A DNA stretch of 49,507 nt from Robiginitomaculum sp. (GCA_026982235.1 JALSHM010000397.1:1-49507), one strand, 5' to 3'; numbered from the stretch's first letter, positions 20,646-46,290 are shown. The notes: a model not told the origin generated them from the letters alone. A program made the numbers and translations.

Positions 20646-20949
20646 TTCTAAGTTGGACTTTAGGCTGGGCAAAATTTCACGTTTCGTCTAGGAGGATAAG
20701 AGGGCTAGAATAGGGACGTTCTGGGACCTCAAGGGATATAGCGGGAAAATCGGGAGATTTTATTTTCCAGAAATACTTCGCCAAGGATTTAAGACATCAA
20801 TGCCCGCAGTATCACAATCCTAACCCTGTAGTGAATAACCGTGGCTGCGATCAAATTATCTGAACTATATATTTCCATTATGAGTGATTAATAAAAGTTG
20901 CAACGAAGCACCAAATGAGGCTAACTTCGGTATTTTCCTCATAATTAAA

Positions 20950-22741: not shown

Positions 22742-22829
22742 TCATTACCGTTTGTGATGACCATGTAGGTGTTTATTCCAGCTAGTGCCCTATAACTTAG
22801 GAATAAGTATATGCAAGTATTAGCCTAAT

Positions 22830-25127: not shown

Positions 25128-27053
25128 CTAAGAAATCTCTCGCCCCTTATTCAGTGTCCATGAAATCGAATTCCCCCGCATGATACCTGACACAGCTTTG
25201 CCTCGATTACGCTCAAGTACATCCCGCCAAGGCACTAGAGAAAAATCTTTGGCGCGTTCTATGATCGCGTATTTTCCGCTTGGGCGGGTGATGGCTTCTC
25301 TGTAAGTGCCGTTTATTCTGGCTGCGCCCTCCATACCCAAATATGCTTTGCCCAATGTGGCCGAGAGTTTCTTCGCCGCACATGCTAGGTCGCGCCGTTC
25401 GAGTTCGTCTAAATGTTTTGCACCTAATGGCGTGTTTTCATTTTCTAAAATACCTTGCTGAACCAAGTATTGGGTGCGTGCAGATTTTGCGGCCTGAACA
25501 TCACTGCCAAACCCATCGTTTACTGGCGCATTATCAGCCATTATTTCTACATCAAGCCATGTGCGCCCCATCGTTGTTTGTAGCTCTTTGAGTCGCAATC
25601 GCGACTGTACATTTACATCGACAGGCTTTGCTCTGCTTCTGAACTTTTCATAAGACTTAGCCCTATCCAAATAATCATGGGGTATTTTCCATGAGCCGTC
25701 TTTGTTTCGGGTTACATGTCCTGCGCGGCGCAATGCTTCCAGCCTACGGATATGCGCTTGAATATACTCTGGCCGTGCGCCTTGGTCAGACGCTTGGTGT
25801 ACCGCCGGGCTGTAGTCGCCATTTCGTTTTGCGGCTAGCTTATCAATCGTCAAGTCAGATTGCTTTGGTTCAATATCAGCGGGGCTAACAGTAACAACCA
25901 TGCCTATTTTTACATCTTCAATGTTCTCTCGGCGGCCTGCTTTGACATAAATGGCTTCACCCTCGGTGGTATCAATAATGAGATAAGCATTGTCATTTAT
26001 ATCGTCTAAGGAACCCACTGCAAGAATTTTTCCCGTTAAAGGTTTTGCTCGCACGTCATGAGGATCATAAACCACATCGAATTTATCGCGGCGATTTAGT
26101 TTTAAATCTTCCAATGCGTGATGATAGGCTTTTAAAATGTCACCTCGCTCTCCCATACTGCGCAGTGTATTTTCCATTTTTATATCAAGATGCCATACGC
26201 CTCGTTTTTCCTGATAAGCTAGCCCCATACGGCTTAGGGTTTTAAGACGCGCAATATCTAGGCGGCGTGTCCATTCCGTAGCTCGTTTTGGCGGCGTTGA
26301 TATATCTACAACATTGGCGTCTGCCATGCGAAGTAAGGCCCTATCAAGCTGCGTAAATCTCTCTTTGGTCACTTCGTTAGCAAGTTTCACGCCCGCTTCA
26401 TATTGATTGATGGGGCCAAGTTCTAACGTCACCATTTCTTCCGCCCGCTCCCGCATCCCGTATGAAATATATTGGCGAGGAATAACGAGATTTTTACCAT
26501 CATCATTTTTACCACCAATGACTATGTGCGTGTGCGGCGTTGCGGTGTCATAATGATTAGCCGCCACCCAATCGAGGCGTGTGCCTAAATCTTCTTCCAT
26601 CTGCGCCATAATGTCCCGCGTGAATGAACGTAAATCAGTTATCTCTTTGCCGTCTTCGGCAGAAACAATAATTCTAAATTGGTGACGATCATTTTTTCCT
26701 CGTTTTTGAAACTCATCTGCATCAGCAATGTCATTATGTTTGTCGTAGATACTGCCGCGTTCATTATCCGGGGCGGCGTTGTCACGAGCGATATAATCCA
26801 AGTGAAGGGATTGCGTCTGTGCGCCTTGTCCGCCCATTTTAACAAGGTTCACTTTTACGATAACCCGCCGCGAGAAAAACTGCTCCCGAACGGCGCTGCT
26901 ATTCCCGTTCAAACGCAGTCCATTCTTTGGCAAAGAAGCAGCGCCTGCCGCTCTCTTTACCCGTCCGGCAAAACTTATCATTCTACGAGAGCCACTCGGC
27001 GAATAAATACGCCCAATTTTAATCTCAAATATGTTTTCACCCTTGCCGCTCAT
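25128..27053 (-). CDS. Conjugative relaxase (VirD2/MobP-like with a DUF3363-type C-terminal region)
   Basis: 641 aa with the histidine triad motif HYDTATPHTHIVIGG. Assignment also rests on its position between traG and traF in the ICE backbone. Confidence 0.85.
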   Translation of the reverse strand: MSGKGENIFEIKIGRIYSPSGSRRMISFAGRVKRAAGAASLPKNGLRLNGNSSAVREQFFSRRVIVKVNLVKMGGQGAQTQSLHLDYIARDNAAPDNERGSIYDKHNDIADADEFQKRGKNDRHQFRIIVSAEDGKEITDLRSFTRDIMAQMEEDLGTRLDWVAANHYDTATPHTHIVIGGKNDDGKNLVIPRQYISYGMRERAEEMVTLELGPINQYEAGVKLANEVTKERFTQLDRALLRMADANVVDISTPPKRATEWTRRLDIARLKTLSRMGLAYQEKRGVWHLDIKMENTLRSMGERGDILKAYHHALEDLKLNRRDKFDVVYDPHDVRAKPLTGKILAVGSLDDINDNAYLIIDTTEGEAIYVKAGRRENIEDVKIGMVVTVSPADIEPKQSDLTIDKLAAKRNGDYSPAVHQASDQGARPEYIQAHIRRLEALRRAGHVTRNKDGSWKIPHDYLDRAKSYEKFRSRAKPVDVNVQSRLRLKELQTTMGRTWLDVEIMADNAPVNDGFGSDVQAAKSARTQYLVQQGILENENTPLGAKHLDELERRDLACAAKKLSATLGKAYLGMEGAARINGTYREAITRPSGKYAIIERAKDFSLVPWRDVLERNRGKAVSGIMRGNSISWTLNKGREIS

Positions 27054-27071
27054 AGTAGTTTTTCCGGGACA

Positions 27072-27225
27072 TAGCGGGAACTAGCGGGACGTGGACTCTC
27101 TTTTTTCCCTTGTAGCATGGGGCATAGCGCCAAAAGTGTGGACTCTCCAAAATGGAGTGTGGACTCTAAAAAACGATGTGCAGACAATGACTTAAGCCCG
27201 TTTGGGCCCAGTCCTTTATCTTGCC
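27072..27225. promoter_or_regulatory. Candidate oriT / relaxase promoter region with direct repeats
   Basis: TAGCGGGA occurs twice (27072-27079, 27082-27089). GTGGACTCT occurs three times (27091-27099, 27138-27146, 27159-27167). TATCTTGCC at 27217-27225 resembles the RP4/Ti nic core ATCCTG/C with one mismatch. The region lies directly upstream of the relaxase start. Confidence 0.4.
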
Positions 27226-27261
27226 GTACACATATCCCCTTAAAACCACCCATAATTTCTC

Positions 27262-28224: not shown

Positions 28225-28435
28225 AGGTTTTGGCCTTAACTTGTTTCTCGCAGTAATCAGAATTCTTAGACCATCTGAGCAAATCGCGAACATGGTATAA
28301 GATCAATCCGCCGTGCTTACGGTATTCTGGGCCATCACCTTTCCAGCGCATATTGGTCAAAGTTTTAGGCTGCACACGCAATAAACGCGCGGCTTCCTTG
28401 GTCGTGTAGAACGGGCTTCTTTCTGGTTTCTTCAT
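28217..28435 (-). CDS. Small HTH (excisionase/MerR-like) DNA-binding protein
   Basis: I place the start at 28435, preceded by GGAG. The motif is YTTKEAARLLRVQPKTLTNMRWKGDGP. Confidence 0.65.
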   Translation of the reverse strand: MKKPERSPFYTTKEAARLLRVQPKTLTNMRWKGDGPEYRKHGGLILYHVRDLLRWSKNSDYCEKQVKAKTYV

Positions 28436-28580: not shown

Positions 28581-29360
28581 TTATTCGAGCAGGGAAAGGT
28601 ACTTTCCATTGCGATATTCTTCGGCGTTTTTATATATTCTTCGTACCTGTTGCTTAAGCGCAGAGTGGCCATCTCCCCATTCCATATTCACATATTCTTC
28701 GCCCATGAGGGCAATGGCTATATCGCGGTAATCACCGCCATCTCTTTTAGCGCGCAATGCAATAAGATATTTTTGCAATCGTTCCGTATTCCTACGATAG
28801 CCAATTTGACTTAATTTACCGCCGCGTGAGCGGTGCAAAGCAATAATTTGATGGATGGATTTCATTCGCTTATTTGAGTGCAATCCGCCATCTACACGGA
28901 ACTCTACCAATGCTTTATCGTCGATTGGGTGCGGGCTATCACAATACAGTTGAAACCAGTAACGCCTACTTTTTAGCACAATATGTCGGCTCCCATTTAT
29001 GCTTTCAAACAGTGTCTTACGACAACAAAACTCTTGCAGCATAACCGTATCTGACGTCCGCCCAAAATTACGGTTATCTGTCTGTGTGTCATCTTGTGGC
29101 CGTCCAAGGCGAACATGAACGGTAGCTGGATAGTATGAGGGCTTCCAAAAGACATCTGCTTCCATCGCGTTCAAGTCGGGATCAACAAAGAATAATAAGC
29201 CCCATTTTCGAGCTTTTTCATACCGCCTATTACCAATAAGTAGGCGGCAACCACTTTCTAGTTCAACCATTTTTGGACTGTATTTTAGGCCGTCAATGCA
29301 GTCGTGGCGGTAGTCCATATTTTCGCGCAACATATCCCATGCCCATGCCGCGCTTGGCAT
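28581..29360 (-). CDS. DUF2285-domain transcriptional activator-like protein (FseA-like)
   Basis: 259 aa. The N-terminal AWAWDMLRENMDYR resembles the LAWEFLRRNPxY motif of DUF6499/DUF2285 proteins from alphaproteobacterial ICEs. Confidence 0.6.
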   Translation of the reverse strand: MPSAAWAWDMLRENMDYRHDCIDGLKYSPKMVELESGCRLLIGNRRYEKARKWGLLFFVDPDLNAMEADVFWKPSYYPATVHVRLGRPQDDTQTDNRNFGRTSDTVMLQEFCCRKTLFESINGSRHIVLKSRRYWFQLYCDSPHPIDDKALVEFRVDGGLHSNKRMKSIHQIIALHRSRGGKLSQIGYRRNTERLQKYLIALRAKRDGGDYRDIAIALMGEEYVNMEWGDGHSALKQQVRRIYKNAEEYRNGKYLSLLE

Positions 29361-29532: not shown

Positions 29533-29868
29533 TTATCCGACTGGGTTCCAGAGGATGGCGTAGTCGCCTTTTGGCTTATCGTTAGCTCTGCCGAGATTGG
29601 CATAGACCTTACGCGGGCCAATCATCGGATGGGCGAGCGTGAGCGAGATATAAGGCTTGCCAGAGGTCTTGCCGACCCGGTTCCAGCCGCCACCAATCTC
29701 TGCGCCGTCATTGGTAAACACCCGAAAGTCTGGTTGTTTATCCGCCGTTTTGTTGTCGTTCGCGACGATGCTGATGCGGGATTTCAGGCCCCCAGAGCTT
29801 ATTAAGCCCAGAGTTCCTTCAAAATTACCGTCTTTGCTTTGGCTTACATATCCTAGTGCTTGTGCCAT
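29533..29868 (-). CDS. DUF736-family protein (third paralogue)
   Basis: 111 aa with GNFEGTL...NDNKTADKQPDFRVF...GGGWNRVGK...YISLTL, matching the pattern of the other two DUF736 ORFs. Confidence 0.7.
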   Translation of the reverse strand: MAQALGYVSQSKDGNFEGTLGLISSGGLKSRISIVANDNKTADKQPDFRVFTNDGAEIGGGWNRVGKTSGKPYISLTLAHPMIGPRKVYANLGRANDKPKGDYAILWNPVG

Positions 29869-30599: not shown

Positions 30600-30890
30600 C
30601 GGTTCAGCCAATGTGTTGCGACGACCCGTTGAACCCACACCCCCAAGCAGTGATAATAAAGACTTCCAAAGAATCACCCTATTTGGGTACAACATCTTTA
30701 TTGAACGTCTATGGTGTTCCCTCAAATATGAGAGTGTCTACCTACATGAGTGGAATGTGGCGGTCGTGAAGCCAAGGCCGAGATTGGAAAATAGATGGAC
30801 TTTTAGGGGCTGCCCTTGGGGTACGACCTCAAGCGACCTCACAGCCCATAAGTGCTTGACACCAGACGTCGCCTACCCGAAAATCATCCG
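30600..30890 (+). pseudogene. Degraded C-terminal remnant of an IS3-family transposase (orfB)
   Basis: NIFIERLWCSLKYESVYLHEW starts at 30691. The ...EAKAEIGK.. and ..TPDVAY segments follow in shifted frames with stops. A 10-bp-period duplication (CGACCTCA at 30824 and 30834) is present. Boundaries are approximate. Confidence 0.65.
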
Positions 30891-30908
30891 AACGTACCAA
30901 GGAATAGT

Positions 30909-32084
30909 ATGAATATGTTATTGAAAAACATTAATGACAAATGGGTCGCAGTTGCCATAATTACTTTAATAGCTTGGATGCTGGTTGCACCTATTAAAGC
31001 TTTTGGTGCCGAAAATAACCCACAAGAAAAAATGAAATTTTGGCATGCTGGCACTGGTGGAAATTGCAGTGTTTGCTCTTGGACAGCGGCCGAGGGAGTT
31101 ATTACTGAAGAAACCCCAGCCGACTTTCTAAAATATATTGAATCTGAAAAGCATGTTGGTGCCTTTGTTTCTTTCCATAGTCCCGGTGGAAACTTAAATG
31201 CCGGATTGGAGTTAGGCCGAATAATTAGAAAGCATGGCATTGCGACGCAGGTCGGAAAAACGGTTGTCTACCCGGAGCCCGAGTATGGAGGGCGATATTC
31301 TGACATAGAAATTGGAGAGTGTTCCAGCTCATGCGCCTATGCATTTATGGGTGGTACAGATAGGCAATTTGGTAAATTGGGTTTCCACAAATATAGTTCA
31401 GGGTCATCTTTGAGTAAGATTCTAAATATTGATAAAATTGATGACGTAGAAAAGCTTTCAATATCTTTATCGCAGTATATATCTGGGCTACTAATTGAAT
31501 ACATAGTAGAAATGGGAGTCGATCCGCGCATTTTATCCTTCATTAAAAACACATCATCAGATGCAATTATCTACCCCACTAAAGAGGTTTTAGAAGAATA
31601 TAATATCATATCACGAACAGGGCTATCTTCTTGGTCGCTTGAACCTGTTGGATCCGGAGCTGTAATGCTCGCATCAGATCAGGAGGCCTCAACTCCTATT
31701 GAGAAAGTCATATTTCACTGCCGAAAAACTGACGGTGCAAGATTGCTGACTATGGTTTCGGTTTATTCAAATGCTGAATGGGATATAGAGGCCTTACATC
31801 TAAATTCCGGTCTTATAGATGGCTGGGCAGGTGGTGGTGCCGATATAGAAATTAATGGGGTTAAAGTTGAAATCCCAAAAGCGCGAGTGGAGTTTTACAA
31901 TGATAAGAAATTTCGATATTACAGATTAAAAATAAACCAAAGAGAAGCCAATCTCTTGTTGAACGCTAAGGACGTTTCCTCACTTGTGTATTGGTCCAAC
32001 GCGGATGGTTTTCACCGTTTTAGGGCAACCTTTAAGGACTATGAGCGAAAAGCATTACGGATAGCTTGGACCAATTGTCTCTAA
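30909..32084 (+). CDS. Secreted/periplasmic protein, COG3904-like (ClpP/SppA-like fold?)
   Basis: I place the start at the ATG at 30909 (MNMLLKN..., signal/TM then AFGA). The pattern FHSPGGNLNAGLELGRIIRKHG...CSSSCAYAFMGGTDR fits that family. The track start at 30852 lies inside the IS3 remnant. Confidence 0.5.
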   Translation: MNMLLKNINDKWVAVAIITLIAWMLVAPIKAFGAENNPQEKMKFWHAGTGGNCSVCSWTAAEGVITEETPADFLKYIESEKHVGAFVSFHSPGGNLNAGLELGRIIRKHGIATQVGKTVVYPEPEYGGRYSDIEIGECSSSCAYAFMGGTDRQFGKLGFHKYSSGSSLSKILNIDKIDDVEKLSISLSQYISGLLIEYIVEMGVDPRILSFIKNTSSDAIIYPTKEVLEEYNIISRTGLSSWSLEPVGSGAVMLASDQEASTPIEKVIFHCRKTDGARLLTMVSVYSNAEWDIEALHLNSGLIDGWAGGGADIEINGVKVEIPKARVEFYNDKKFRYYRLKINQREANLLLNAKDVSSLVYWSNADGFHRFRATFKDYERKALRIAWTNCL

Positions 32085-32236
32085 AAATATTTCCGAGTTC
32101 TGTTGGCGAAAAGCGTTAATATCAAAGTGTAAAATTGTGTATGCTGAACCTTAGAAATCGGATGTTTTTCCCATTGATTTCGAGAATGTATGATTTTTGC
32201 TTAAGCTTGTGCACCAAACGCTTGCCATACAAATAC

Positions 32237-32265
32237 GGCTCGCGCCCCTTTTGGGAGCGCGAGCC
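32237..32265. terminator. Hairpin between convergent genes (bidirectional terminator candidate)
   Basis: GGCTCGCGC / GCGCGAGCC 9-bp stem with an 11-nt loop. It lies 28 nt beyond the parB-like stop. Confidence 0.55.
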
Positions 32266-32292
32266 GCTTTACAGACGGTGTATCGGGGGAGA

Positions 32293-34071
32293 CTAGGCCG
32301 CCTGTTTTCTCGGTGTGGGTTTGCGCTTGGCGAATAGTTTCGCGATGCGTTTCCAGTTCTGTGCGGGTGGGCAACCGCTTGCTTCGCGGTAATGGATGGC
32401 AGGAAATGCTGCCCATCTTGGGAGCCAATCTGGGCTTGCTTTATCAACGCCGTGACCTGCCATGCGGTTCTTGATGATTTGCTTTTGGCTCTTGGCCGTG
32501 TCGGTGATGCACCCTTGGGCGGTTGGTTTTCCTGCTATGTCAGCGACCATTTGATTGACCACGCCCTTGTCGCGCAAGATGTCAAAGAACGCTTCATCAG
32601 GTTGCCAATAACTTCCAAAATCCGCGCCCGTTAGAACGCCAACGGCTTCTACGGCTCCGCTATTGGTCGAGAGGGTTTCGGCCATACAAAACGTCATTAT
32701 CCGCAAGACCGATTTGTCATCTAAGTCGAGCAATGTAGCGAATACGGTGTTCAAGCTGAACATGCTTTCATAGCGGTGATAGATTTGGGTATCATCTTTC
32801 TTTAGTCCCAATAACCCTGCAATGACTTTGCGCTCTGCGGCAAGTTCCTGCTCGGCCTTGGAGTTTTCAACACTTAACTGCGTGGCTTCCTTTCTTGTGC
32901 ATTGTTCATCCTTAGTAACTTTCCAATGGCGTGAACCCGTAATCATATGAGCAACGGTCAAGCGCAAAGCCATCTTGGGGTGCTTAATCAGCGCCGCCCG
33001 TGCAATGGAATGGCGGTGCAAATTCATATACTCCGCCATCGGGCCTGACATTTCAGGGCGCGGTTTGGTGTCGGGCTTGCTATCTCCATTTTGCGTCTGG
33101 CGGTCTAGCCGCCGCGCTTCGGCTTCTGGCATAAAGCCCTCATGGAATATGACCTGTCCATCGTTCTTAACTTCGATATAGACATTGCCGCCTTGTTCCT
33201 TACTGCGCTCTACATGCTCCCATCCATAGAATGTTTGCCCTACATCACCGATAAACACGTTTTTCCAACCGTCTTTCTCGTATTGCTCCGCTTCCATTGC
33301 GACAATCGTATTCTGGCATGACCAGAATAGTTCGGGGTCGGCGAATTGCCCGTGTTCCCCGAATAGGTCTGTGATGATAGTGCCCTTATACTCCTCCATA
33401 GGGAATAAGGCTTTATCAGTGGTGATAAGACCGCCGCCTGATAGCCAAGCCTTTAACTGGTCACCTTGGGGCGCATAGTCGTCAGATTTGAAAATTTTGA
33501 GCCATGCCGTTTGTTGTTTCTTGCTCGCCATTGTCAGGGCGCGGATGGTGGCGGGGTTAATCTCTTCGTCCGTGTATAATTTACGCAGTTGCGGCAGTAA
33601 CGCGCCAAGCGCAAGCCGCTGTTTTACGGCACGTTCCGTAATGCCAAACACGGCGGCGATCTCGGCAATGCTCTCGCCTTTGTCCGCGAGTGTCTTAAAG
33701 GCTTCGTATTGCTCCATTTCTGTGGGCGCAAGGCGGGCGATATTTTCTAAGATACTGGCTTCTAGTCCCTCCGCATCGTCGTCCGCGTCCATAATACAGC
33801 ACGGCACGGGCGCAATCTTATCGCCATCATCTGCAATGGCTTTCAGGCAAAAATAGCGTCTGCGCCCTGCGATAATGCCGTAAGCGTTTTTATTATCCTT
33901 GGTCGGCTCTGGCCGTACCAAGAGCGGCTGACGAATACCGCGCTGTTTTACGCTCGGCAATATGTCCGATATATCGGGCGGTTTATTGCCCTTGGCCTTA
34001 TGGCGCATATTCAGTGTAGATATATGCAAATCGTCAAATGCGATATGTTTCAAGTCGAGTGGTTTAGTCAT
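32293..34071 (-). CDS. ParB/Srx-domain protein (ICE ParB-like nuclease/partition family)
   Basis: 592 aa with N-terminal LHISTLNMR...GIRQPLLVRP...GIIAGRRRYFCLKA ParB-box motifs and a following HTH. Confidence 0.8.
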   Translation of the reverse strand: MTKPLDLKHIAFDDLHISTLNMRHKAKGNKPPDISDILPSVKQRGIRQPLLVRPEPTKDNKNAYGIIAGRRRYFCLKAIADDGDKIAPVPCCIMDADDDAEGLEASILENIARLAPTEMEQYEAFKTLADKGESIAEIAAVFGITERAVKQRLALGALLPQLRKLYTDEEINPATIRALTMASKKQQTAWLKIFKSDDYAPQGDQLKAWLSGGGLITTDKALFPMEEYKGTIITDLFGEHGQFADPELFWSCQNTIVAMEAEQYEKDGWKNVFIGDVGQTFYGWEHVERSKEQGGNVYIEVKNDGQVIFHEGFMPEAEARRLDRQTQNGDSKPDTKPRPEMSGPMAEYMNLHRHSIARAALIKHPKMALRLTVAHMITGSRHWKVTKDEQCTRKEATQLSVENSKAEQELAAERKVIAGLLGLKKDDTQIYHRYESMFSLNTVFATLLDLDDKSVLRIMTFCMAETLSTNSGAVEAVGVLTGADFGSYWQPDEAFFDILRDKGVVNQMVADIAGKPTAQGCITDTAKSQKQIIKNRMAGHGVDKASPDWLPRWAAFPAIHYREASGCPPAQNWKRIAKLFAKRKPTPRKQAA

Positions 34072-34082
34072 GGCGTAGTCTC

Positions 34083-34334
34083 CTATTTTGCCGTTTTGGT
34101 TTTGGGTAGGGTTTGGGGTGAATTGATAAAATCTATTAGGTCGATTTGGGCGCGTCCGACTTCGTCAAACATGCCGATGTCGCACGGTTTTTGCTGTGCA
34201 TTCGGGTTCCGCTTTGGTGTCATAGGGTGGCATGTTCGGGCGGTAAGTTTCTCGCCAAGAGTGACGGGGCGCACACCGTTAATCAGGGTCTGCACTCCGA
34301 CTTCCGTCTGCTCGCATATGGGTTTGGCACTCAT
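34083..34334 (-). CDS. Small hypothetical protein (83 aa) in the ardA-parB operon
   Basis: Its ATG at 34334 overlaps the upstream stop (ATGA). It ends 12 nt before the parB-like start. Confidence 0.5.
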   Translation of the reverse strand: MSAKPICEQTEVGVQTLINGVRPVTLGEKLTARTCHPMTPKRNPNAQQKPCDIGMFDEVGRAQIDLIDFINSPQTLPKTKTAK

Positions 34335-34816
34335 GCCGCGCTTTCGCAAACACTCGCGCACAGCCGTTCCCGTGCTAGCTTTGCCGCGTCCAGTGCTTCG
34401 GATAGCAATTCATTTGCGACTTGGGATAAATAGGCATTATCACTATCGGGGTAATTGGCTTCAATTCCCCAAAGGCTTGCGGCGTGGTCTGTGAGTTCGG
34501 TGTCGTCTATGGTGACTGACAGGATAATGCCGCAATAAAACCATTCGTCATTTAGCCATGCCGCCATGACGGACTCGGCCTTGGCCTGTTGTTCCTCGCA
34601 CCGCTTGCGCCATCCATTTCCCGCGCCAATAAATCCTGCGGCATTCGGGTCTAGGCTCGGCCAAAATCCGTCTTGGCGTTCGTCGGGTTTATCGGGGCTT
34701 TCGTCGTGGGCAATTCTTGCGGTAACGGTATAATCGCCAACGTCCACGCTTATGCTATCGCCAAGGCAGACATATGGCAAAAACTGCTCGCTAAATTCTG
34801 GTTCTCGCGCTTCCAT
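34331..34816 (-). CDS. Hypothetical protein (161 aa) in the ardA-parB operon
   Basis: Clean acidic ORF that starts 1 nt after the ardA stop. I recognise no family. Confidence 0.55.
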   Translation of the reverse strand: MEAREPEFSEQFLPYVCLGDSISVDVGDYTVTARIAHDESPDKPDERQDGFWPSLDPNAAGFIGAGNGWRKRCEEQQAKAESVMAAWLNDEWFYCGIILSVTIDDTELTDHAASLWGIEANYPDSDNAYLSQVANELLSEALDAAKLARERLCASVCESAA

Positions 34817-34817: not shown

Positions 34818-35417
34818 TTAGCTATTCCAGAAAACGTGAATTTCTTTATAGCCTGTCTCTATAGAGAATATGTCGCCGCTTAATTCCATGTCACGCGCCA
34901 TAGATTTATAGTCGATATAGTATTTTAGGGTTTTGGGAATCTCGGTGGTGGACTCGGTGAGTTCCTCGGCAAAGTCTGCTAAGCTTTCATACTCGCCGTT
35001 ATAGCGCTCAAGGGCGGATTCTGCGTCCTTGACATGCCCTTTGGGTGCAATATCGCCGCCATAGTTTTCCAGTAACTTGCCGCCAAAGCCTGAACAGTTT
35101 TCCAAAAACTCGGCAATCTCAACCACACGGGCAAAGCTGTCATATTCGTTTATGGTTACACCATCGAAATTCTCGTAATCGTGAATTGCCCATTCCTCGG
35201 CATCGGGGATGGGGGATGATTTAAGGATGGCGCGAACTGCGTCCTGAATACTGTCCTCGTCCTCAACGTCTATCCAAGAGCCGTGCAAGTGGCCGTTATT
35301 GTAGGCGGCAAGGCAAGCCACATAGATTCTAGGGGTGTCGGGGTCTAGCACGAAAGGTGCGGTTAAATTCCCTGTAGGTTGGGCTTGGCTCGGTGTTGCG
35401 GTTCTAGGTTCGGTCAT
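34818..35417 (-). CDS. ardA: ArdA antirestriction protein
   Basis: I place the start at the ATG at 35417 (MTEPRTA...). It has the signature IYVACLAAYNNGHLHGSWIDV and a very acidic C-terminal half. The track's N-terminal extension to 35657 runs through the hairpin. Confidence 0.85.
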   Translation of the reverse strand: MTEPRTATPSQAQPTGNLTAPFVLDPDTPRIYVACLAAYNNGHLHGSWIDVEDEDSIQDAVRAILKSSPIPDAEEWAIHDYENFDGVTINEYDSFARVVEIAEFLENCSGFGGKLLENYGGDIAPKGHVKDAESALERYNGEYESLADFAEELTESTTEIPKTLKYYIDYKSMARDMELSGDIFSIETGYKEIHVFWNS

Positions 35418-35448
35418 GGGGCAGTCTCCTCTTTTTTCTCCGCACCAG

Positions 35449-35631
35449 CCTCCGCCGGAAGGGCGGGGATGGGCGGCTAAGAGGCCCGCCAGCAGGGCGC
35501 ACAAGGGTGCGGGGCAAGGGTTTTGGTAGGCAGACCAAGACAAATTATATGCATATAAAGCCAAAGCCCTTGCGCCGTGACCGCGCCCTGCTATCAGGGC
35601 CGCCCGCCCATCCCCGCACTTTCGAAGGAGG
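35449..35631. repeat. ~183-bp GC-rich imperfect inverted repeat (bulged hairpin) upstream of ardA
   Basis: Three arm pairs match: 35449-35476 with 35604-35631, 35491-35500 with 35583-35592, and 35514-35526 with 35561-35573. The apex is the perfect palindrome TTATATGCATATAA (35545-35558). Confidence 0.85.
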
Positions 35632-35705
35632 CGTTCATGATGTGGGGATTTAAACAAAGAAAGAATTCAATCGCCAAAATACATGGATGTGCTATAACGT
35701 GAATC

Positions 35706-37265
35706 ATGTCCGATGAAATTAAAAAATTTGAACAATTTTGGGATGTTTTATCCCGGGCTGGTATTGATGAGCGGGCGCGGGTGCGGGCGGAGCGGTTGGT
35801 TGCCAAGACCGGGGAGGCAATTCCTGTTGTTATCGCTGAATTGGGGTTAGCGTCTGATGCGGTTGTTGTTGATGCGTTTTGCGAAGTTACAGGTTTACTA
35901 AAAACGGATGTTACGCAAATCTCTGATAACTCTATTTTGGAGGACACTATCAGCACAGAGTATTTGCGTTCTCACAGAGTTTTACCTTTGTCGCAGAATG
36001 AGAGTGTGCTTGATGTCGCGATAATTGATCCATTTGATCTGGATGCCATCACGGCTTTGGAGTTTGCTTGTAAGGTTAAAGTATCACCGTCAATCATGAC
36101 GCTCACGGATTGGCGGGCGGCCTTTGACCAGTTGTATGGACGACAGGATGATATCGATGAAACCGAAGCAGCGTTGACGGGAGCGGGTTGGGCCGATGAT
36201 ACGCAGCGATTGAAGGATTTATCCAATGAAGCACCTATTGTGCGTATGGTTGATCGGTTGTTGACGGATGCTGTGGATAAGGGAGCTACTGATATACATG
36301 TGGAGCCTGCTCCAAACATTACCCGCATCCGTGTTCGCATAGACGGGGCATTGCAAGCTTTGCCAGACGAAGCACCTGAACTTGCCGCGTTGTTGGTCTC
36401 GCGGGTTAAGGTGCTCTGCGATATGGATGTGGCTGATAGGCGCCGCCCGCAAGATGGCCGGACATCTGTTGCCGTGCGTGGTCGTCCAATCGACCTACGG
36501 GTCTCTACAGTGCCAACGGCTTACGGAGAGAGTATGGCTATACGGATATTGGACCGCGCTGCCTCTATGCTGTATTTAAGCAAACTCGGATTTTCTGATT
36601 ATGACCGGGAATTGATAGAGACCGTATTAATAACTCCCAAGGGCATTTTTCTGGTCACCGGGCCGACGGGTTCTGGTAAGACAACTACGCTCTATGCAGC
36701 ACTGAATAAACTACGGCAGACCCAACGCAAGATACTAACGGTGGAAGACCCGATCGAGTATTTCTTTGAAGATGTAAATCAGGTGCAGGTCAACGAAGCG
36801 GCGGGTGTTACCTTTGCCACGACTTTACGCTCATTCCTACGTCAAGACCCGGATATACTAATGGTCGGCGAAATACGCGACGGAGAAACTGCGCGTATCG
36901 CTGTGCAGGCGGCGCTAACCGGGCATTTGGTATTATCCACTCTGCATACCAATGATGCCGTCTCGTCCATTGCACGGCTCAAGGACATGGGGGTTGAAGA
37001 CTACCTCATCGCGGCAACACTAAGCGGTGTCACGGCACAAAGACTTGTGCGCAAGAAAAGCGGAACAGGCCGCACTGTTATTGCTGAAAGTTTTCTCTGT
37101 ACACCAGAGATAACCAAAGCCATCAGATCAGGTGCTCCCGAAGATGAAATTGTCAAACTCGCGAGCAAACAAGGCATGGTATCTCTACGGCAAGACGGAG
37201 AAGCCAAAGCAAAAGCCGGACTGGTCAATCTTGATGATGTTTATATTGCTACAGGGCAGAACTAA
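35706..37265 (+). CDS. gspE: GspE/PilB-family secretion ATPase
   Basis: 519 aa with a T2SSE_N/MshE-like N-domain, Walker A GPTGSGKTT, Asp box, Walker B ILMVGEIRD and His box STLHTND. It lacks the tetracysteine segment. Confidence 0.9.
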   Translation: MSDEIKKFEQFWDVLSRAGIDERARVRAERLVAKTGEAIPVVIAELGLASDAVVVDAFCEVTGLLKTDVTQISDNSILEDTISTEYLRSHRVLPLSQNESVLDVAIIDPFDLDAITALEFACKVKVSPSIMTLTDWRAAFDQLYGRQDDIDETEAALTGAGWADDTQRLKDLSNEAPIVRMVDRLLTDAVDKGATDIHVEPAPNITRIRVRIDGALQALPDEAPELAALLVSRVKVLCDMDVADRRRPQDGRTSVAVRGRPIDLRVSTVPTAYGESMAIRILDRAASMLYLSKLGFSDYDRELIETVLITPKGIFLVTGPTGSGKTTTLYAALNKLRQTQRKILTVEDPIEYFFEDVNQVQVNEAAGVTFATTLRSFLRQDPDILMVGEIRDGETARIAVQAALTGHLVLSTLHTNDAVSSIARLKDMGVEDYLIAATLSGVTAQRLVRKKSGTGRTVIAESFLCTPEITKAIRSGAPEDEIVKLASKQGMVSLRQDGEAKAKAGLVNLDDVYIATGQN

Positions 37266-38479
37266 TGACCAAGTTTAGCTACAAGGTACAGGGCGCGGAC
37301 GGGCGGGCACAATCCGGTATTGTTGAAGCTGCCAGCAAATCTGGGGCGCTGGAGGTTTTGCTTTCGCGGGGGCAGACGCCTTTGCGGTTACATGCGGTTG
37401 GAGATAAGTCTGAATTTCAAAACTGGTTTAAACCTGCACCCAAGGAGTTCAGCGTTAAGGATGCGGCGGAGTTTTCGGGGGATTTATCACGGTTGCTCAG
37501 TTCGGGGTTTTCTTTGCATCAGGCTTTGCAAATGACTGCGGTTTCGGCGGGCTCCAAACCTGCTCGCGCTTTGGCAGAAAAGTGCGCAGAGCAAGTGCAA
37601 AAAGGCGGCAGTTTACACAGTGTATTAGTCAAAGAAACTTCCGGTCCGGCATTGGCATTGGCTGGGCTGGTACAGGCTGGAGAAACCACCGGGCATTTGG
37701 AAAAAGTGCTGCAGGATGCGTCGGGCAGTTTTGGTGCCAGTGCCGAGTTTAAAGAAAAACTGGGTTCGGCTTTGATCTATCCGGCAATTATTATGTTTAT
37801 GATTTCGCTGACTTTGCTCATATTTTTTACGATGGTGTTGCCGCGTCTCCGGCCATTATTTGAGGATGTAGGTGATAGGCTACCGGCTATGACCAAAGTC
37901 TTACTAGGCTTTGGTGATTTTTGCGAAAATTGGGGGCCGTGGCTGGCTTTGGGCTTGGTTATGTTGCTGATTGGTATGCGTGTGCGGCCAGGGCTGAGAC
38001 AGAAAATAAAACATTTTTTTGACAGTATCTTGTTAGGTCGGCTTGGTATGGGTGCCCCTAAATTGGCTGGGTTTGCCGCCTATGCCCGCACGCTAGGCCT
38101 GTTGGTCAATTCGGGTGTGCCGTTACCCGCCGCTAATTCTGTTGCCGCCGGGGCTGTGGCTAATCTGGTGTTAAGTGAGAAATTTGAAAGTCTGACATCT
38201 CCACTTCGCGGCGGTGAAAATCTATCAAAATTATTGGGAAAACTTTCAGAAGCCCCGGAGCTGTTGGTACGAATGGCGGTGATTGGTGAACGCTCAGGTA
38301 AGCTAGGTCCGGCGCTGACCGACGCAGCAGGCATTTTGGAACGCTCTGCCCGTACTCGTATGGAGCGGTTGATGGCCGCGCTTACACCAGCAATTACAAT
38401 AATATTGGGTATTATTGTTGCGCTGGTTGTCGGGGCGTTATTCTTGGGCTTGGCGAGTTTAACCGAGATTGATGTATGA
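37265..38479 (+). CDS. gspF: GspF/PilC-family inner-membrane platform protein
   Basis: 404 aa with two T2SSF-like repeats and three TM segments. Its start overlaps the gspE stop. Confidence 0.88.
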   Translation: MTKFSYKVQGADGRAQSGIVEAASKSGALEVLLSRGQTPLRLHAVGDKSEFQNWFKPAPKEFSVKDAAEFSGDLSRLLSSGFSLHQALQMTAVSAGSKPARALAEKCAEQVQKGGSLHSVLVKETSGPALALAGLVQAGETTGHLEKVLQDASGSFGASAEFKEKLGSALIYPAIIMFMISLTLLIFFTMVLPRLRPLFEDVGDRLPAMTKVLLGFGDFCENWGPWLALGLVMLLIGMRVRPGLRQKIKHFFDSILLGRLGMGAPKLAGFAAYARTLGLLVNSGVPLPAANSVAAGAVANLVLSEKFESLTSPLRGGENLSKLLGKLSEAPELLVRMAVIGERSGKLGPALTDAAGILERSARTRMERLMAALTPAITIILGIIVALVVGALFLGLASLTEIDV

Positions 38480-38940
38480 TGCTAAGCAAACAGGCTGGAT
38501 ATACTTTGACCGAATTACTTGTGGTTCTTATGTTGTTAACCTTGATGACCGCTATCGGGCCGGTGGCTCTACAAAAGTTATTACCCGGCATGGCGGTAAA
38601 TAGTGCGGCCCAAACACTACAAGCAGATTTGCAAACCCTACGCGTCCGTAGCTTGACTTCGGGGAGTATGGGCGAATTACGCATTGAGAAAAATGGGCGA
38701 GGCTATATACTGCTGGTTGCAGAGCAAATAATACGGCGTCGCAGCTTGGGGAATGCAGTTCGTATTCGCAGTGTGGATGGTGAAGAATATGGCAACGAGG
38801 ACAGCATTATTACGGCAGATGCAAGTGGGAGGTTATCCGGCTTGTCATTACGCGTTGAGCGCGGTAAACGTGTCAAATCTATTCAGATTAACCCTGTATT
38901 CGGGACGGCAGAAATTGTAAGTGCTTATGTGGAGCAATAA
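38476..38940 (+). CDS. gspH: Minor pseudopilin, GspH-like
   Basis: Prepilin leader KQAG/YTLTELLVVLMLL with Glu at +5. Size (154 aa) and pattern are GspH/FimT-like. Confidence 0.65.
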   Translation: MMLSKQAGYTLTELLVVLMLLTLMTAIGPVALQKLLPGMAVNSAAQTLQADLQTLRVRSLTSGSMGELRIEKNGRGYILLVAEQIIRRRSLGNAVRIRSVDGEEYGNEDSIITADASGRLSGLSLRVERGKRVKSIQINPVFGTAEIVSAYVEQ

Positions 38941-39337
38941 ACCAGATTATTATAAAAAAGCCGGGAATCAGGAAAATGGCTTTATTCTCAGCGAAATTCT
39001 TGTGGCCATGGTAGTATTGGCGATTGCGGCTATCGGCTTTTTACAAACCATACAATTTGCAGCAAGCAGAATGCATAATTCAAAGGTAAGTCATACGCAA
39101 ACGGTCTTTGCACTCTCACTTATGGAAGATGCAATTGAACGGGATTTGTATGATAAAGAAGGTGGGGAGGGCGTTGACAAAAAAACCAAGCTCAATTGGC
39201 GTGTTGTCGTTGTTCCGGATAAAAACCGTCAATCACAAAGCTCGGAACAACCAAGCCTAAAAACAGTCAGTGTCGAAGTGTGGAAAACGGAAACTCGTAA
39301 GTTAAAACTCACCAGTATGAAATGGTCGGGGCGTTAG
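38921..39337 (+). CDS. gspI: Minor pseudopilin, GspI-like
   Basis: Leader ...NQENG/FILSEILVAMVVLAIA. About 136-138 aa. The start is either GTG 38921 or ATG 38927. Confidence 0.6.
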   Translation: MLMWSNKPDYYKKAGNQENGFILSEILVAMVVLAIAAIGFLQTIQFAASRMHNSKVSHTQTVFALSLMEDAIERDLYDKEGGEGVDKKTKLNWRVVVVPDKNRQSQSSEQPSLKTVSVEVWKTETRKLKLTSMKWSGR

Positions 39338-39338
39338 T

Positions 39339-39884
39339 ATGAGCGCCGGGTTTACATTAACAGAGGTGCTTGTGGCGCTCATGATCTTGGGGGCAACGGC
39401 AGGAACAATGAGTACGACTATGGGGACGGCGTTTAAATCTTACGAGCGACTTGATAGCAGTTCATCTGATTTACGCAAACAATCCAAGCTCAAACAAGTT
39501 ATGGCAGAAGTGTCAGGCCGGTATTGGCTCGCGGACGGTAAAGTCAAAGAAAAGAAACTAACCGAAATTCCTGTGAACGGGCCGTATTTTTGCAAGTTAG
39601 CCATTGAAGAAAAGCAAGCTGATATTTGGGGTCTTTATGCCATAAGTGAAAGCGGTGAGAAAACGCAAATAATAGCGTCTAAAACAGAATTGCGCTTTAG
39701 AGCGATTGGTCAGCGCAGAAAATTGGGTGTGACCCGGAACACCCCTTATGATTATCACACCTTGATATTGGAGCAATTAGAAGATAGCTTGGTCAGTGAG
39801 TGGAACCCCATCATATCTGTAGCGTTAAAGGTAGATGCCGACCCCGCCTGCCGATTTGATATTGTGGGGCTTCAATGTCGATAA
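39339..39884 (+). CDS. gspJ: Minor pseudopilin, GspJ-like
   Basis: Leader MSAG/FTLTEVLVALMILG. 181 aa. Confidence 0.6.
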   Translation: MSAGFTLTEVLVALMILGATAGTMSTTMGTAFKSYERLDSSSSDLRKQSKLKQVMAEVSGRYWLADGKVKEKKLTEIPVNGPYFCKLAIEEKQADIWGLYAISESGEKTQIIASKTELRFRAIGQRRKLGVTRNTPYDYHTLILEQLEDSLVSEWNPIISVALKVDADPACRFDIVGLQCR

Positions 39885-40861
39885 CTAATGAGTTGGTAGA
39901 AAAAAACTTGGAACGATATATAAGTAATGGAACATTACTTGGTGACGGCTTAGATATTGTTGCTAGGTTTGGGAAATCTCTTTCGAAGGCATTCGGATGG
40001 AACAGCGCCAATGCTATAGGCATAATTTATGCTGAGCCGCCAATCGATTTGCTTGAACAGAAATTGACTTTGAATGTAACAACCCGTGCAAGTGCAAAGC
40101 GCGCCGCAAATTTAATGATAACAAGGCTGTCGCCGCTCCATGAAGATCAAATTGAATGGGATATTGTTGGTCCCCATACTTCGCTAGATAACGGCGTTGA
40201 TAACACCGAAAATGTTGGTGCCCAAATAGTGAATACGAAGAAACAATATACGCTCGGGATTGTCCGCAAAACAGATTTGGAAAATTGGGATAGATTACAA
40301 ACACAGCACAGTTCGTTAAAAACCATCGGGCGTAGCGGCGATGTATACCAGTTTATCAGTACCCTTAGTCGTCAAACCAAACGTAAGCAAACTCTGTTAG
40401 GTATATTGGCATTTATGGCCTGCTATATTGGTTTGTTGTGGGGTATGGCGCAGTGGGCCAGCCGACCTGTAAGAATTGCGAACCATTGGCAAGAACAAAC
40501 TCGCACTATCCGATTAGACATCCAGAATATGCGTATAGAATTGAAGAAAAATAAAGCCCGCTCAATATTGATGGAAAGTTATCAATCAAGTTCGCACCGA
40601 GTAAATTTGTTAGATATCCTTGCCATCACGGCACAAACCATGCCGGACGGCGGTTGGATACGTGAAATAAACTTATCTGCAAACCAAATAAAGATAAGCG
40701 GGACGTCTGATAATCCGTCCAAGCTTGCTGTGCAAATGGAAGCCAAGCCATTTATTGGACAAGTGCAATTGGGTGCAGTATCCGCAGATCGTTCCAGTGG
40801 ATTGCAGAGGTTTACCCTGACGATTATCCTCGCTGACAATTTGGCGAGGGAAAAACCATGA
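39875..40861 (+). CDS. gspL: GspL-like (PilM/PilN-type fusion) assembly protein
   Basis: 328 aa with a cytoplasmic N-domain, a single TM (LLGILAFMACYIGLLWGMAQW) and a PilN-like periplasmic C-domain. Assignment also rests on its position before a GspM-like gene. Confidence 0.55.
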   Translation: MSITNELVEKNLERYISNGTLLGDGLDIVARFGKSLSKAFGWNSANAIGIIYAEPPIDLLEQKLTLNVTTRASAKRAANLMITRLSPLHEDQIEWDIVGPHTSLDNGVDNTENVGAQIVNTKKQYTLGIVRKTDLENWDRLQTQHSSLKTIGRSGDVYQFISTLSRQTKRKQTLLGILAFMACYIGLLWGMAQWASRPVRIANHWQEQTRTIRLDIQNMRIELKKNKARSILMESYQSSSHRVNLLDILAITAQTMPDGGWIREINLSANQIKISGTSDNPSKLAVQMEAKPFIGQVQLGAVSADRSSGLQRFTLTIILADNLAREKP

Positions 40862-41439
40862 GCAAAACCAGCCAAAACACTAACCGACTTGTTCAAGGAG
40901 TAGGCCTCGTCTTAGCGCTCCTATTGTTACTCCCATTTATTTTAATGGGCGGAAAAATGTTGAATGCATATACCGACCTGAAGGATGTTCGGTTTCAATC
41001 AGAAAAACTATTGCGACAACAACAAACCTTAAGACAAGACTTGCAAATTAGCCAAGAAAACCTTTCTGCATTACAACGGGACTTTAAACCTTTAGACGGG
41101 AGTATAGCCAAAGCCAATGCTATACTTCAAACCCGATTGCGTAAGTTGATTACGGTGGTTGGCGGTACTGTAGAAACCAGCTCTCAAGTCAAAATAAGGA
41201 ATGATATTAGGGCGGATGCGTCACTATCCCTTAGCCCGGTTTCAGTTAATGTTCGTTGGAGTGTGAGTGAAGTGGGCTTGGGCGAATTCTTGGCGAATAG
41301 TGCTGCGCCCAAACAAAACCTAAAAATAGACAGTCTTCTCATTCGGCGTAGACAGGGCACAGCCAGCCTACTTGATATTCGCATGCAATGTTCCGCACTC
41401 TGGCAAGACCCGTCTTTGGACAGTAAGGGGAGACGGTAA
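40858..41439 (+). CDS. gspM: GspM/PilO-like assembly protein
   Basis: 193 aa with an N-terminal TM, a coiled coil and a ferredoxin-like C-terminal pattern. It has 4-nt overlaps with its neighbours. Confidence 0.5.
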   Translation: MSKTSQNTNRLVQGVGLVLALLLLLPFILMGGKMLNAYTDLKDVRFQSEKLLRQQQTLRQDLQISQENLSALQRDFKPLDGSIAKANAILQTRLRKLITVVGGTVETSSQVKIRNDIRADASLSLSPVSVNVRWSVSEVGLGEFLANSAAPKQNLKIDSLLIRRRQGTASLLDIRMQCSALWQDPSLDSKGRR

Positions 41440-41912
41440 TGAAAATAACGACAAAAATATTTGGCTTTATTGTTGTGAGTTTACTGCTCGGTTTAGCGGC
41501 TAAAACACTTCCCCATAAACAAGTAATCGTTACCCCGTTGAATGTAGAGATAAGTCCTCAAACTGTTACCTCTATACCTGCCATTGATGCATCGCTCTTG
41601 TTGCAGCGTTATCAATCGCGTCCTTTATTTGTCTCAAAAATTGCACATGATGTCGGGGCTGGGAACGAAACAGACATAGTAATTGTCAAAGAATGGTCAC
41701 CATTTGATTATCAACTTATCGGGATTAGTCGTGTTAGCAGCAAGACAACGGGTTGGTTTAAAAATATTGATACAGGCGATCTTGTTTCTGGGCGCCAAGG
41801 TATGCAATTGGGAAATTGGACACTGGATGCTATGTCTGGTACTGAGGCGAAATTGTCTTCGGAAGGTAAAACTGAAAGTTTAAAGTTGTTTCAAGGGGGA
41901 GAAGCGCGTTAA
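41439..41912 (+). CDS. GspC/PilP-like small bitopic protein (HR-domain candidate)
   Basis: 157 aa with an N-terminal TM. It lies immediately upstream of the secretin gene. There is no PDZ or coiled-coil extension. Confidence 0.4.
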   Translation: MKITTKIFGFIVVSLLLGLAAKTLPHKQVIVTPLNVEISPQTVTSIPAIDASLLLQRYQSRPLFVSKIAHDVGAGNETDIVIVKEWSPFDYQLIGISRVSSKTTGWFKNIDTGDLVSGRQGMQLGNWTLDAMSGTEAKLSSEGKTESLKLFQGGEAR

Positions 41913-41927
41913 GGTGCGGTTTTGTAG

Positions 41928-44934: not shown

Positions 44935-44984
44935 AGCTCTGTTTTGTATTGCGCTTAGACACATTTATCAGTTAAGGTAAATTT

Positions 44985-45434: not shown

Positions 45435-45521
45435 TTTGTTTTAATTAATTTCTAAAAGGGGTTGTGGTTGTGATATGTTTTTGTTAACTATAACTTGGGT
45501 GAAGAGATTGGGGATTCGGAT

Positions 45522-46232: not shown

Positions 46233-46290
46233 TGGTTAAGTGTGCAATAAGCCGTGTCATACACATTTTGACCTGCGCTGGGGCGGAGTT

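Follow-up and report, generated by a model that had tools for sequence, protein, structure and literature searches.

We examined a 49,507-nucleotide stretch of DNA from Robiginitomaculum sp. (GCA_026982235.1 JALSHM010000397.1:1-49507), hereafter referred to as the window, in which a long imperfect inverted repeat lies between the anti-restriction gene ardA and the gene for a type II secretion system (T2SS) E ATPase. By its Pfam matches, the window contains an integrative conjugative element (ICE) with a Tn4371/ICEMlSym-like backbone (trb, traG, DUF3363 relaxase, traF, DUF2840, ParB-like and ardA genes). A previous inspection of the letters by themselves (the sequence-only reading) had proposed the repeat as a candidate promoter that is formed in the incoming single strand and serves the leading region, the part of the element that enters the recipient first. 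This proposal is supported by our analysis as far as sequence reaches. The parts of the hairpin and the genes on its two sides are as follows; positions are counted from the first letter of the window, and the + strand is the strand that begins there.

35449..35631, + strand: whole bulged hairpin, folding on the ardA template strand, the putative transferred strand
35449..35527, + strand: 5′ arm, proposed template arm read by RNA polymerase towards ardA (from the consensus structure and the column-to-coordinate map)
35477..35484, + strand: purine-rich bulge CTAAGAGG of the 5′ (template) arm, unpaired in the consensus and opposite the segment that runs from the −10-like loop to the predicted start
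35528..35559, + strand: apical loop; 5′ end invariant, 3′ half A+T-rich, remainder variable in sequence
35560..35631, + strand: 3′ arm, proposed non-template arm bearing the promoter-like elements
34818..35417, − strand: ardA, 199 aa (Pfam PF07275, E = 1.1e-43), the first gene downstream of the hairpin
35426..35432, − strand: strong Shine-Dalgarno sequence AGAGGAG of ardA, 8 nt ahead of the ATG (35417-35415) and conserved in the alignment of relatives
35706-37265, + strand: T2SS-E ATPase gene (Pfam)

Fold of the hairpin upstream of ardA

The imperfect inverted repeat was confirmed at 35449-35631 (183 nt), and all the pairing blocks that had been listed for it were found. The outer arms (35448-35476 and 35604-35632; 29 nt each) are 86% complementary, the middle block AGCAGGGCGC (35491-35500) is 100% complementary to GCGCCCTGCT (35583-35592), and the inner stem is formed by 35510-35526 with 35561-35577. 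The left arm had been estimated to be about 20 nt longer than the right arm, but the excess shrinks to about 6-10 nt in the consensus structure (35458-35527 vs 35560-35623). The base of the hairpin (35449) is separated from the ATG of ardA (35417) by a gap of 31 nt, and the GC content of the hairpin is 64% vs about 50% in the background.

Both strands were folded as single-stranded DNA (ssDNA). The + strand gave −70.6 kcal/mol (z = −8.96), a value that none of 200 shuffled sequences equalled, and the − strand gave −59.6 kcal/mol (z = −5.96). When the whole window was scanned with a GC-corrected sliding window, the hairpin ranked first among the folds (z = −8.1).

Distribution of the hairpin and its coupling to ardA

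To find relatives, we scanned one genome per species (185,579 species) with the invariant inner stem as the query, and obtained 20 loci, with at most three per genome. Their hosts are metagenome-assembled genomes (MAGs) of marine Alphaproteobacteria (Robiginitomaculum, Marinicaulis, Parvularculaceae), together with one MAG labelled Deltaproteobacteria. The examination by tblastn clarified that these copies all lie immediately upstream of ardA in the same orientation; the sole exception is a locus cut by a contig end (L019). Where a genome has several copies, each is beside its own ardA, which reflects the presence of multiple ICEs. A covariance model (R1) built from 18 sequences matched 65 of 80 metagenomic ardA loci, in each case just upstream of the gene and on its antisense strand; among the 15 loci that gave no match, three have upstream sequences too short to judge. 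The hairpin family is thus present upstream of ardA in at least 85 related elements. The window itself carries a single copy of the core motif, and a scan of the window by R1 matched only the hairpin at 35449-35631. There the model scored 197.8 bits on the + strand vs 73.5 bits on the − strand, a gap that arises in part from the model having been made on a single strand; strand-wise free energies and the counts of G·T and A·C cells were therefore used to compare the strands.

The coupling to ardA holds even where the ArdA proteins are only 50-59% identical. A homologue of the hairpin can also be recognised in the ICEs of Nitratireductor and Pelagibacterium, where ArdA is 52% identical, and in one locus (L013) the hairpin remains with ardA though orf161 and parB are absent. 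The 238 bp upstream of ardA share about 97% identity among close relatives, as against 84-88% for the ArdA protein. The DNA beyond the hairpin is unrelated among the relatives: McrBC, Dnd-associated, helicase/ATPase or sugar transport systems replace the T2SS genes of the window. The hairpin marks the boundary between the backbone and the cargo of the ICE.

Covariation and strand preference

The consensus structure obtained with RNAalifold from 24 unique sequences contains 51 pairs, 21 of which show pair-preserving changes on both sides. In this structure 96.6% of the cells are paired, as compared with 38-50% in a control in which the partner was slid by 1-3 columns, and all five covariation measures exceed those of 500 out of 500 shuffles. 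The inner stem (helix 6) is invariant within the marine group. In the rhizobial-type ICEs (Nitratireductor, Pelagibacterium) it covaries: CAAGGGCTTTGG is replaced by CAACCGCTTCGG, and the partner arm changes to match.

A clear contrast is seen between the two strands. The non-Watson-Crick cells comprise 117 G·T on the + strand of the window vs 2 A·C. This count used a structure predicted on the + strand, and the free energies were also compared strand by strand: the strand antisense to ardA was the stabler one in 24 of 24 unique homologues (by −12.5 kcal/mol on average) and in 53 of 53 unique metagenomic homologues (−9.8 kcal/mol), the latter comparison being independent of alignment. In the wide alignment fitted to the model, the ratio of G·T to A·C was only 121:50, probably due to misalignment of the diverged inner stem and loop. 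Judged from these sequence patterns, the pairing of the hairpin is under selection, and on one strand. Since both the G·T bias and the strand energies favour the strand antisense to ardA, the folded molecule is taken to be the ardA template strand, or an RNA copied with that polarity, and not the ardA mRNA. Transcription of ardA is possible from the favoured strand only.

Several unpaired segments are also conserved. GGTAGG at 35525-35530 is invariant, its TAGG being the 5′ end of the apical loop. The 22 nt that precede the inner 3′ stem are A+T-rich in 75 of 76 sequences (57% on average vs 33% in the whole hairpin). The purine-rich bulge at 35477-35484 is kept across the wide family as C(T/G)AAGAGG or CGAAAAGG. 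As for the apex palindrome that had been pointed out, it is present in the window copy (TTATATGCATATAA) but not conserved in relatives, and it was rejected as a protein site on the ground that it is specific to this copy.

Promoter-like elements in the 3′ arm

A search for −35 and −10 hexamers across the stem, as the sequence-only reading had envisaged, yielded one pair with fixed spacing, directed at ardA and composed of weak hexamers. The elements and the start zone predicted from them are as follows.

35570..35575, + strand: −35-like TTGCGC; TTG is paired in the inner stem, and G35574 and C35575 belong to a small internal loop in the consensus
35592..35597, + strand: −10-like TATCAG; T35592 is paired and closes the helix, and ATCAG is a conserved internal loop
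35476..35486, − strand: start zone predicted for ardA mRNA made on the folded single strand, located by counting along the structure from the −10-like element; the 5′ untranslated region would be about 60 nt

Three features of these elements are constant. The TTG of the −35-like hexamer is kept in every homologue, even where the remaining inner stem covaries. The spacer between the two hexamers is exactly 16 nt and free of indels in all homologues. The last is that A35593, the second position of the −10-like hexamer at the junction of stem and loop, is invariant in 24 of 24 and 53 of 53 sequences. Read 5′ to 3′, the boxes point from the apex to the base, and therefore the downstream template is the 5′ arm and then ardA. 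The geometry of the predicted start zone is comparable with that of the class 2 hairpins of pESBL and F described below, and the purine bulge would sit where an open complex holds the single-stranded template. The rhizobial-type copies carry TTGCGG-N16-TATAAG, with TATAAG, TAAAAG or TACAAG as the −10 forms. The window copy agrees reasonably well with the Caulobacter housekeeping consensus TTGACGS-N10-14-GCTANAWC (TTGCGCC, 13 nt, GCTATCAG).

In the region 35300-35800, a strict sigma-70 promoter scan of both strands found no conventional promoter, and a terminator scan of both strands found no terminator; no T run follows the hairpin on either strand. On the ardA-sense strand, mirror-image boxes can be traced (TTGCCC, about 20 nt, TGGCGG), but they are spoiled by the asymmetry of the arms, which would fit silence of the duplex form. 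The TATAAT in the apical loop (complement of 35552-35557, ardA-sense) was considered as a −10 element for transcription of ardA from the duplex. It was set aside, for there is no −35 element at a sensible spacing, and the hexamer is variable and absent from the Nitratireductor copy (CGTCCAGA).

Origin of transfer and transfer polarity

The information on the positional relationship among the hairpin, the origin of transfer (oriT) and the backbone genes is needed to judge which strand enters the recipient. The relevant features, with the backbone genes assigned by Pfam, are as follows.

8939-18041, − strand: trbI to trbB
18624-20672, − strand: traG
25128..27053, − strand: relaxase gene with a MobA/VirD2-like nuclease domain and DUF3363; transcribed away from oriT and predicted to be the last to enter
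27054..27261, + strand: candidate oriT in the traF-relaxase intergenic region, syntenic with the mapped oriT of the Tn4371 family and aligned with five relatives
27262-27789, − strand: traF, S26 peptidase
27790-28293, − strand: DUF2840 gene
28581-29360, − strand: gene for a RovC/DUF2285-type regulator
29533-29868, − strand: DUF736 gene
32293-34071, − strand: gene for a 592-aa protein with a ParB N-terminal domain (ParB_N match), presumed member of the ardA operon
34083-34361, − strand: orf92, presumed member of the ardA operon
34331-34816, − strand: orf161, presumed member of the ardA operon

Deletion analysis in the Tn4371 family placed oriT in the intergenic region between traF and the relaxase gene (PMC11448139). 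We fetched the corresponding regions of five relatives via their TraF homologues and aligned them with the window. On the + strand of the candidate oriT, a conserved block is accompanied by an inverted repeat whose sequence varies (27196-27207), after which CTTTATCTTG stands before C or T (27217-27223). In the window this nic-core-like motif reads TATCTTG↓C on the + strand, and ATCTTG recurs at that position in every relative with an intact intergenic region. The arrangement resembles that of MOBP origins, namely an inverted repeat, a spacer and YATCCTG↓Y, with the inverted repeat and the relaxase gene on the trailing side.

Because of the gene layout and the presence of the nic-like motif on the + strand, we infer that the + strand is the transferred strand, nicked at about 27223/27224 with its 5′ end entering first, and that the traF side leads. 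The genes from traF through parB to ardA would then occupy the leading 8 kb, with ardA 7.6-8.2 kb from the nick. The sequence-only reading had expected the ardA side, opposite to the relaxase gene, to enter first, and both the oriT mapping in the family and the nic-like motif point the same way. Except for the gene at 30852-32084, all the genes from traF to ardA are on the − strand, directed at oriT and co-directional with the relaxase gene. The presumed ardA operon consists of closely spaced, co-directional genes (32293..34816 after ardA), and the gene order ardA-orf161-small orf-parB is present in most relatives.

The candidate oriT also contains three direct repeats of GTGGACTCT (27091-27099, 27138-27146 and 27159-27167) and a tandem CATAGCGGGA/ACTAGCGGGA at 27070-27089, with a conserved block AAAAAACGATGTGCAGACAATG nearby. 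These repeats are probably sites for relaxosome accessory proteins or RdfS-type proteins.

An inverted repeat of 18 bp, with a loop of 17 nt, was found inside the coding sequence of traF (27436-27488), and both of its arms contain a perfect TATCCTG resembling the MOBP nic core. The repeat is structurally kept in relatives with compensatory changes, AACTATCCTG/CAGGATAGTT becoming AATGGTGCCG/CGGGACCATT in the Hellea-type ICEs, and its single wobble pair favours the traF-sense strand. The TATCCTG at 27446-27453 was considered as the nic site and set aside: the motif is lost in the Hellea-type relatives while the hairpin stays.

Comparison with known ssDNA promoters and single-strand origins

In IncI1 and IncF plasmids, three classes of ssDNA promoters have been distinguished, with starts mapped by 5′ rapid amplification of cDNA ends (5′ RACE) and with no sequence similarity to one another: class 1 is Frpo/ssi (ssp1), class 2 (ssp2) precedes ardA, klcA and ardB, and class 3 precedes a methylase gene (PMC12672017). 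The promoters upstream of ardA, klcA and ardB in pESBL and F were validated by 5′ RACE, deletion and microscopy (PMC12672017; PMC9849209; bioRxiv 10.64898/2026.01.09.698686). ssp2 is also a structural roadblock to second-strand synthesis, which is resolved by UvrD (bioRxiv 10.64898/2026.01.09.698686). Frpo/ssi1-3 of F and ColIb-P9 go back to Masai and Arai (1997), as cited in PMC9849209 and PMC11541004.

The class 2 hairpin of F was traced to 4481-4719 of L039, where a gap of 37 nt separates it from the antirestriction gene, and the one upstream of ardA in pESBL to 24045-24282, with a gap of 35 nt. The window hairpin shares many properties with them. It is a long GC-rich imperfect hairpin, on what would be the transferred strand, right before an anti-restriction gene in the leading region, its base-to-start gap being 31 nt as compared with 35-37 nt. 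A −10-like element lies in a mismatched portion of the 3′ arm, about 25-30 nt from the base. Both form GC islands (ssp2 68.6% in a 48% plasmid; window hairpin 64% in about 50%), and in both the transferred strand, putative in the case of the window, folds better (in F, −80.2 vs −73.6 for the complement). The layouts of F and the IncI1 plasmid pESBL are also alike, in that the leading genes (ardA, ssb, psiB and a large ParB-like gene) face oriT and are co-directional with the relaxase or tra genes. The differences are that ssp2 is longer (about 240 nt vs 183 nt), that its boxes by our own reading of the F sequence are TTGCAT...TAAGAT whereas those of the window are the weaker TTGCGC-16-TATCAG, and that ssp2 occurs in several classes and copies on enterobacterial plasmids and the window hairpin as one copy per element in alphaproteobacterial ICEs.

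With Frpo (ssp1), the likeness is one of principle. There, a stem-loop of the incoming strand rebuilds −35 and −10 elements, drives leading genes before the second strand is made and is inactive as a duplex, which is what we propose here, and the orientation logic relative to oriT is the same. The long imperfect hairpin just upstream of ardA, on the template strand of the gene and thus on the putative transferred strand, has the placement of a Frpo-type element. However, the sequence is unrelated, the Frpo hairpins are about 270 nt long and less GC-rich, and Frpo has near-canonical boxes with direct biochemical and in vivo proof.

Similarity searches gave no sign of common ancestry. A blastn search (word size 11) of 35380-35710 against 72,556 PLSDB plasmids including F found no match at E ≤ 1e-3; for reference, the criterion for Frpo/ssi similarity in Samuel et al. 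is BLAST E ≤ 1e-6. On the ssp2 of F (4472-4720), R1 scored 7.3 bits (E = 1.5, not significant). On the pESBL hairpins at 24045-24282 and 17098-17335 it had no match, and it found no significant match in the F leading region. A scan of the whole window against Rfam gave no match at gathering thresholds. Short words are common to the F ssp2 (L039 4481-4719) and the window hairpin (GGCGGGGATG, CAGGGCGCA, CCCTTGC, GGCTAAGA and CCCGCCAGC), and their order and arms differ; they could reflect convergence under similar constraints or a very old relationship. Homology to the F ssp2 on the basis of such shared 7-10-mers was rejected, since the word order differs and the covariance score is insignificant. 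The label "Frpo-like" given by the sequence-only reading is thus apt for the anatomy and geometry but not for descent, as neither sequence nor structure homology links the hairpin to Frpo, ssp2 or other known ssDNA promoters. On these comparisons, it resembles the known ssDNA promoters in anatomy and belongs to none of the three families.

Single-strand origins (sso), as in rolling-circle plasmids and the ICEBs1 sso1, are another point of comparison. They are also strand- and orientation-specific folds of ssDNA, 150-200 nt long and used only while single-stranded. They differ in being defined by second-strand priming and in not being bound to a gene, whereas the hairpin is locked to ardA with its boxes facing the gene. 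No likeness to ssoA or ssoT motifs was noticed, though no search aimed at them was made. ICEBs1 sso1 is a single-strand origin on a conjugative element, and some sso are recognised by RNA polymerase (PMC4595007).

Proposed function and alternative explanations

We consider it fairly probable that the hairpin acts as a promoter on the incoming single strand and drives the ardA operon during conjugation. On the sequence data, the description that suits it best is a new class of ssDNA-promoter-like element that is widespread among alphaproteobacterial ICEs. In the proposed mechanism, the relaxase would nick the + strand of the window at the oriT between traF and the relaxase gene, and this strand would enter the recipient from its 5′ end. 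After a further 8.2 kb or so, the two arms of the hairpin would both have arrived in the recipient and would fold. The stem would then rebuild a duplex containing the −35-like TTGCGC, and 16 nt further on the TATCAG would present a paired first base and the invariant A at the opening of a pre-melted loop. The housekeeping RNA polymerase holoenzyme would bind this mimic of an already-open promoter, take the 5′ arm as the template and unwind the outer stem of about 25 bp. In this way ardA, orf161, the small orf and the parB-like gene would be transcribed ahead of complementary-strand synthesis, and the anti-restriction protein would be produced at the earliest possible moment. Once the DNA becomes double-stranded, the hairpin would be abolished, and with the ardA-facing boxes spoiled by the arm asymmetry (a spacer of about 20 nt and TGGCGG at −10) expression would be turned off. 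By analogy with Frpo and ssp2, the transcript or the structure may also prime or delay the synthesis of the complementary strand.

The doubt that remains in this reading concerns recognition by RNA polymerase and the transferred strand, and the following points weigh against it. TTGCGC/TATCAG matches the E. coli consensus TTGACA/TATAAT at only 7 of 12 positions and fails a standard scan. In the wide family the −10 position reduces to nAnAnn, CAGACG being the commonest form and lacking the usual final T, so that recognition by a sigma-70-type holoenzyme is not assured. The conserved unpaired motifs (GGTAGG where the loop is entered, TA-N-ACG/AGACG within the apical loop, and the purine bulge) are not needed by a simple promoter model; these three may provide extra contacts or serve a second function. 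The nic-like motif has one mismatch to the MOBP nic core, and it is from this motif that the nicked strand was deduced. A wobble pair, G·T or G·U, does not distinguish ssDNA from RNA of the same strand. Finally, the relatives are all uncultured MAGs or metagenome contigs.

A more far-reaching version of the promoter reading can be offered tentatively, and we regard it as possible rather than probable. The hairpin would represent an ssDNA promoter class of its own, the fourth, which is not related to the three already described and would be the first to be established for ICEs, with structure-based recognition, in place of a canonical −10, through the paired TTG at −35, the fixed 16-nt spacer and the invariant A at the edge of the pre-melted loop. 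In addition, the timing or priming of second-strand synthesis would depend on the very stable stem and on the conserved motifs of the apex and the bulge, so that promoter, roadblock and sso are combined, and the element would mark the fixed backbone edge beside the exchanged cargo.

Of the explanations that dispense with a single-strand promoter, the one that survives best is that the hairpin is only a single-strand origin, a priming site or a roadblock, which recruits RNA polymerase or primase or stalls synthesis and has no promoter role for ardA. The sso elements are indeed strand- and orientation-specific ssDNA hairpins of 150-200 nt, one of which is found in ICEBs1 (PMC4595007). Frpo also primes DNA synthesis, ssp2 is a physical roadblock, and the loop motifs for which a promoter has no need could be start or stop signals of a primer. 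In ssoA-type origins, the short primer runs towards the loop. In the present hairpin, however, the promoter-like elements point out of it into ardA. Moreover, an sso could sit anywhere on the transferred strand, yet the hairpin is found at a near-constant short distance before ardA in one orientation in at least 85 loci, and it travels with ardA while the other neighbours change. The two roles are compatible, and the explanation is a rival only in the form that denies the promoter; in that form we think it unlikely.

Less likely again is a structured antisense RNA, in which the + strand would be transcribed from within or near the ardA start and the resulting hairpin RNA would regulate ardA or a neighbour. 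The G·U-type strand bias is what would be expected of a + strand RNA, and covariation of such quality is typical of structured RNAs. However, Rfam gave no match, no + strand promoter-like site precedes the hairpin and no terminator follows it, and its 3′ flank is variable cargo, sometimes with convergent genes. Such an RNA would be complementary only to the untranslated leader, and the leading position and the link with the template strand would have to be a coincidence.

We hold it very improbable that the repeat functions either as a structure in the sense leader of the ardA mRNA or, in the duplex, as a palindromic operator or a cruciform to which a regulator of the divergent promoters of ardA and the cargo binds. 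The intergenic region is divergent in the window, the sense strand also folds well (−59.6 kcal/mol), and the inner stem is invariant in sequence among close relatives, as a protein site would be. Nevertheless, in a sense leader the 117 G·T cells would become A·C mismatches, and the sense strand is the less stable one in 77 of 77 homologues. For a duplex operator, the covariation of 21 pairs would be unexpected, since segments separated by 60-170 bp would not have to be complementary, and a shared divergent control region is unlikely because the cargo side is not conserved. The GC-rich, palindromic and intergenic character of the hairpin might superficially suggest a dispersed repeat (repetitive extragenic palindrome, miniature inverted-repeat transposable element or similar) or a chance palindrome, an idea left with next to no probability by its single copy in 49.5 kb, the limit of three copies per genome, always beside ardA where the context could be assessed, the lack of any equally stable shuffle and the strong covariation.

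That anti-defence genes are expressed early from the incoming single strand has been experimentally shown only for IncF and IncI plasmids of Enterobacteria, and outside this group the candidates for ssDNA promoters rest on the search for E. coli-type boxes. The compensatory changes and the stability bias in 77 of 77 homologues are evidence of a new type, which shows that the hairpin is maintained on the ardA template strand in many ICEs of both the marine and the rhizobial type. If the single-strand promoter reading is true, this strategy extends to integrative elements and to Alphaproteobacteria, and the features it requires are revealed: the TTG, the spacing, one unpaired A and the bulge of the template arm. 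The R1 model could then be used to orient transfer polarity and to locate leading regions in unannotated ICEs, and the hairpin would be a compact part for single-strand-specific expression in non-enteric hosts.

Cargo and other features of the window

The slot beyond the hairpin (35632-47000; compared among L001-L014) is a hot spot for cargo, and conservation among the relatives ends 8-22 nt past the hairpin base. The slot is filled in the window by a T2SS-like cluster, with GspE and GspF, orfs resembling pseudopilins, a PilN-like protein and, at 41928-44039, a secretin; in the relatives it holds McrBC, Dnd-associated genes, UvrD-like/AAA pairs, HATPase and helicase systems, or a sugar transporter. 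In the interval between traG and the relaxase gene (21114-24957), a HipA-family kinase toxin gene (21428-22741) is preceded by a small orf (21114-21449), and a 539-aa protein encoded at 23338-24957 carries cytidine/dCMP deaminase and MafB19-like deaminase domains. The HipA and deaminase genes may represent a toxin-antitoxin module and a defence or anti-defence module.

Two other strong folds were found in the window, neither of which is strand-biased. One (7681-7840; z about −5) abuts the start of the transposase gene of an insertion sequence (IS). The other (32161-32340; z about −3.2), probably a bidirectional terminator, is placed between the gene at 30852-32084 and parB, which are convergent.

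At the left end of the window, there is the tail of a second ICE of the same family in inverted orientation, comprising the 3′ end of trbI (5-553) and a DUF736 gene (813-1127). This tail (2-1127) is 80-88% identical to that of the main ICE (8291-9490; DUF736 at 8291-8602 and trbI at 8939-10213). The DNA separating the tails contains an AbiEi/AbiEii toxin-antitoxin pair, a gene for a tyrosine integrase and an IS with an rve-type transposase (features at 1244-2775, 4821-6068 and 6762-7802). The two ICEs, standing tail to tail, may share an insertion site.

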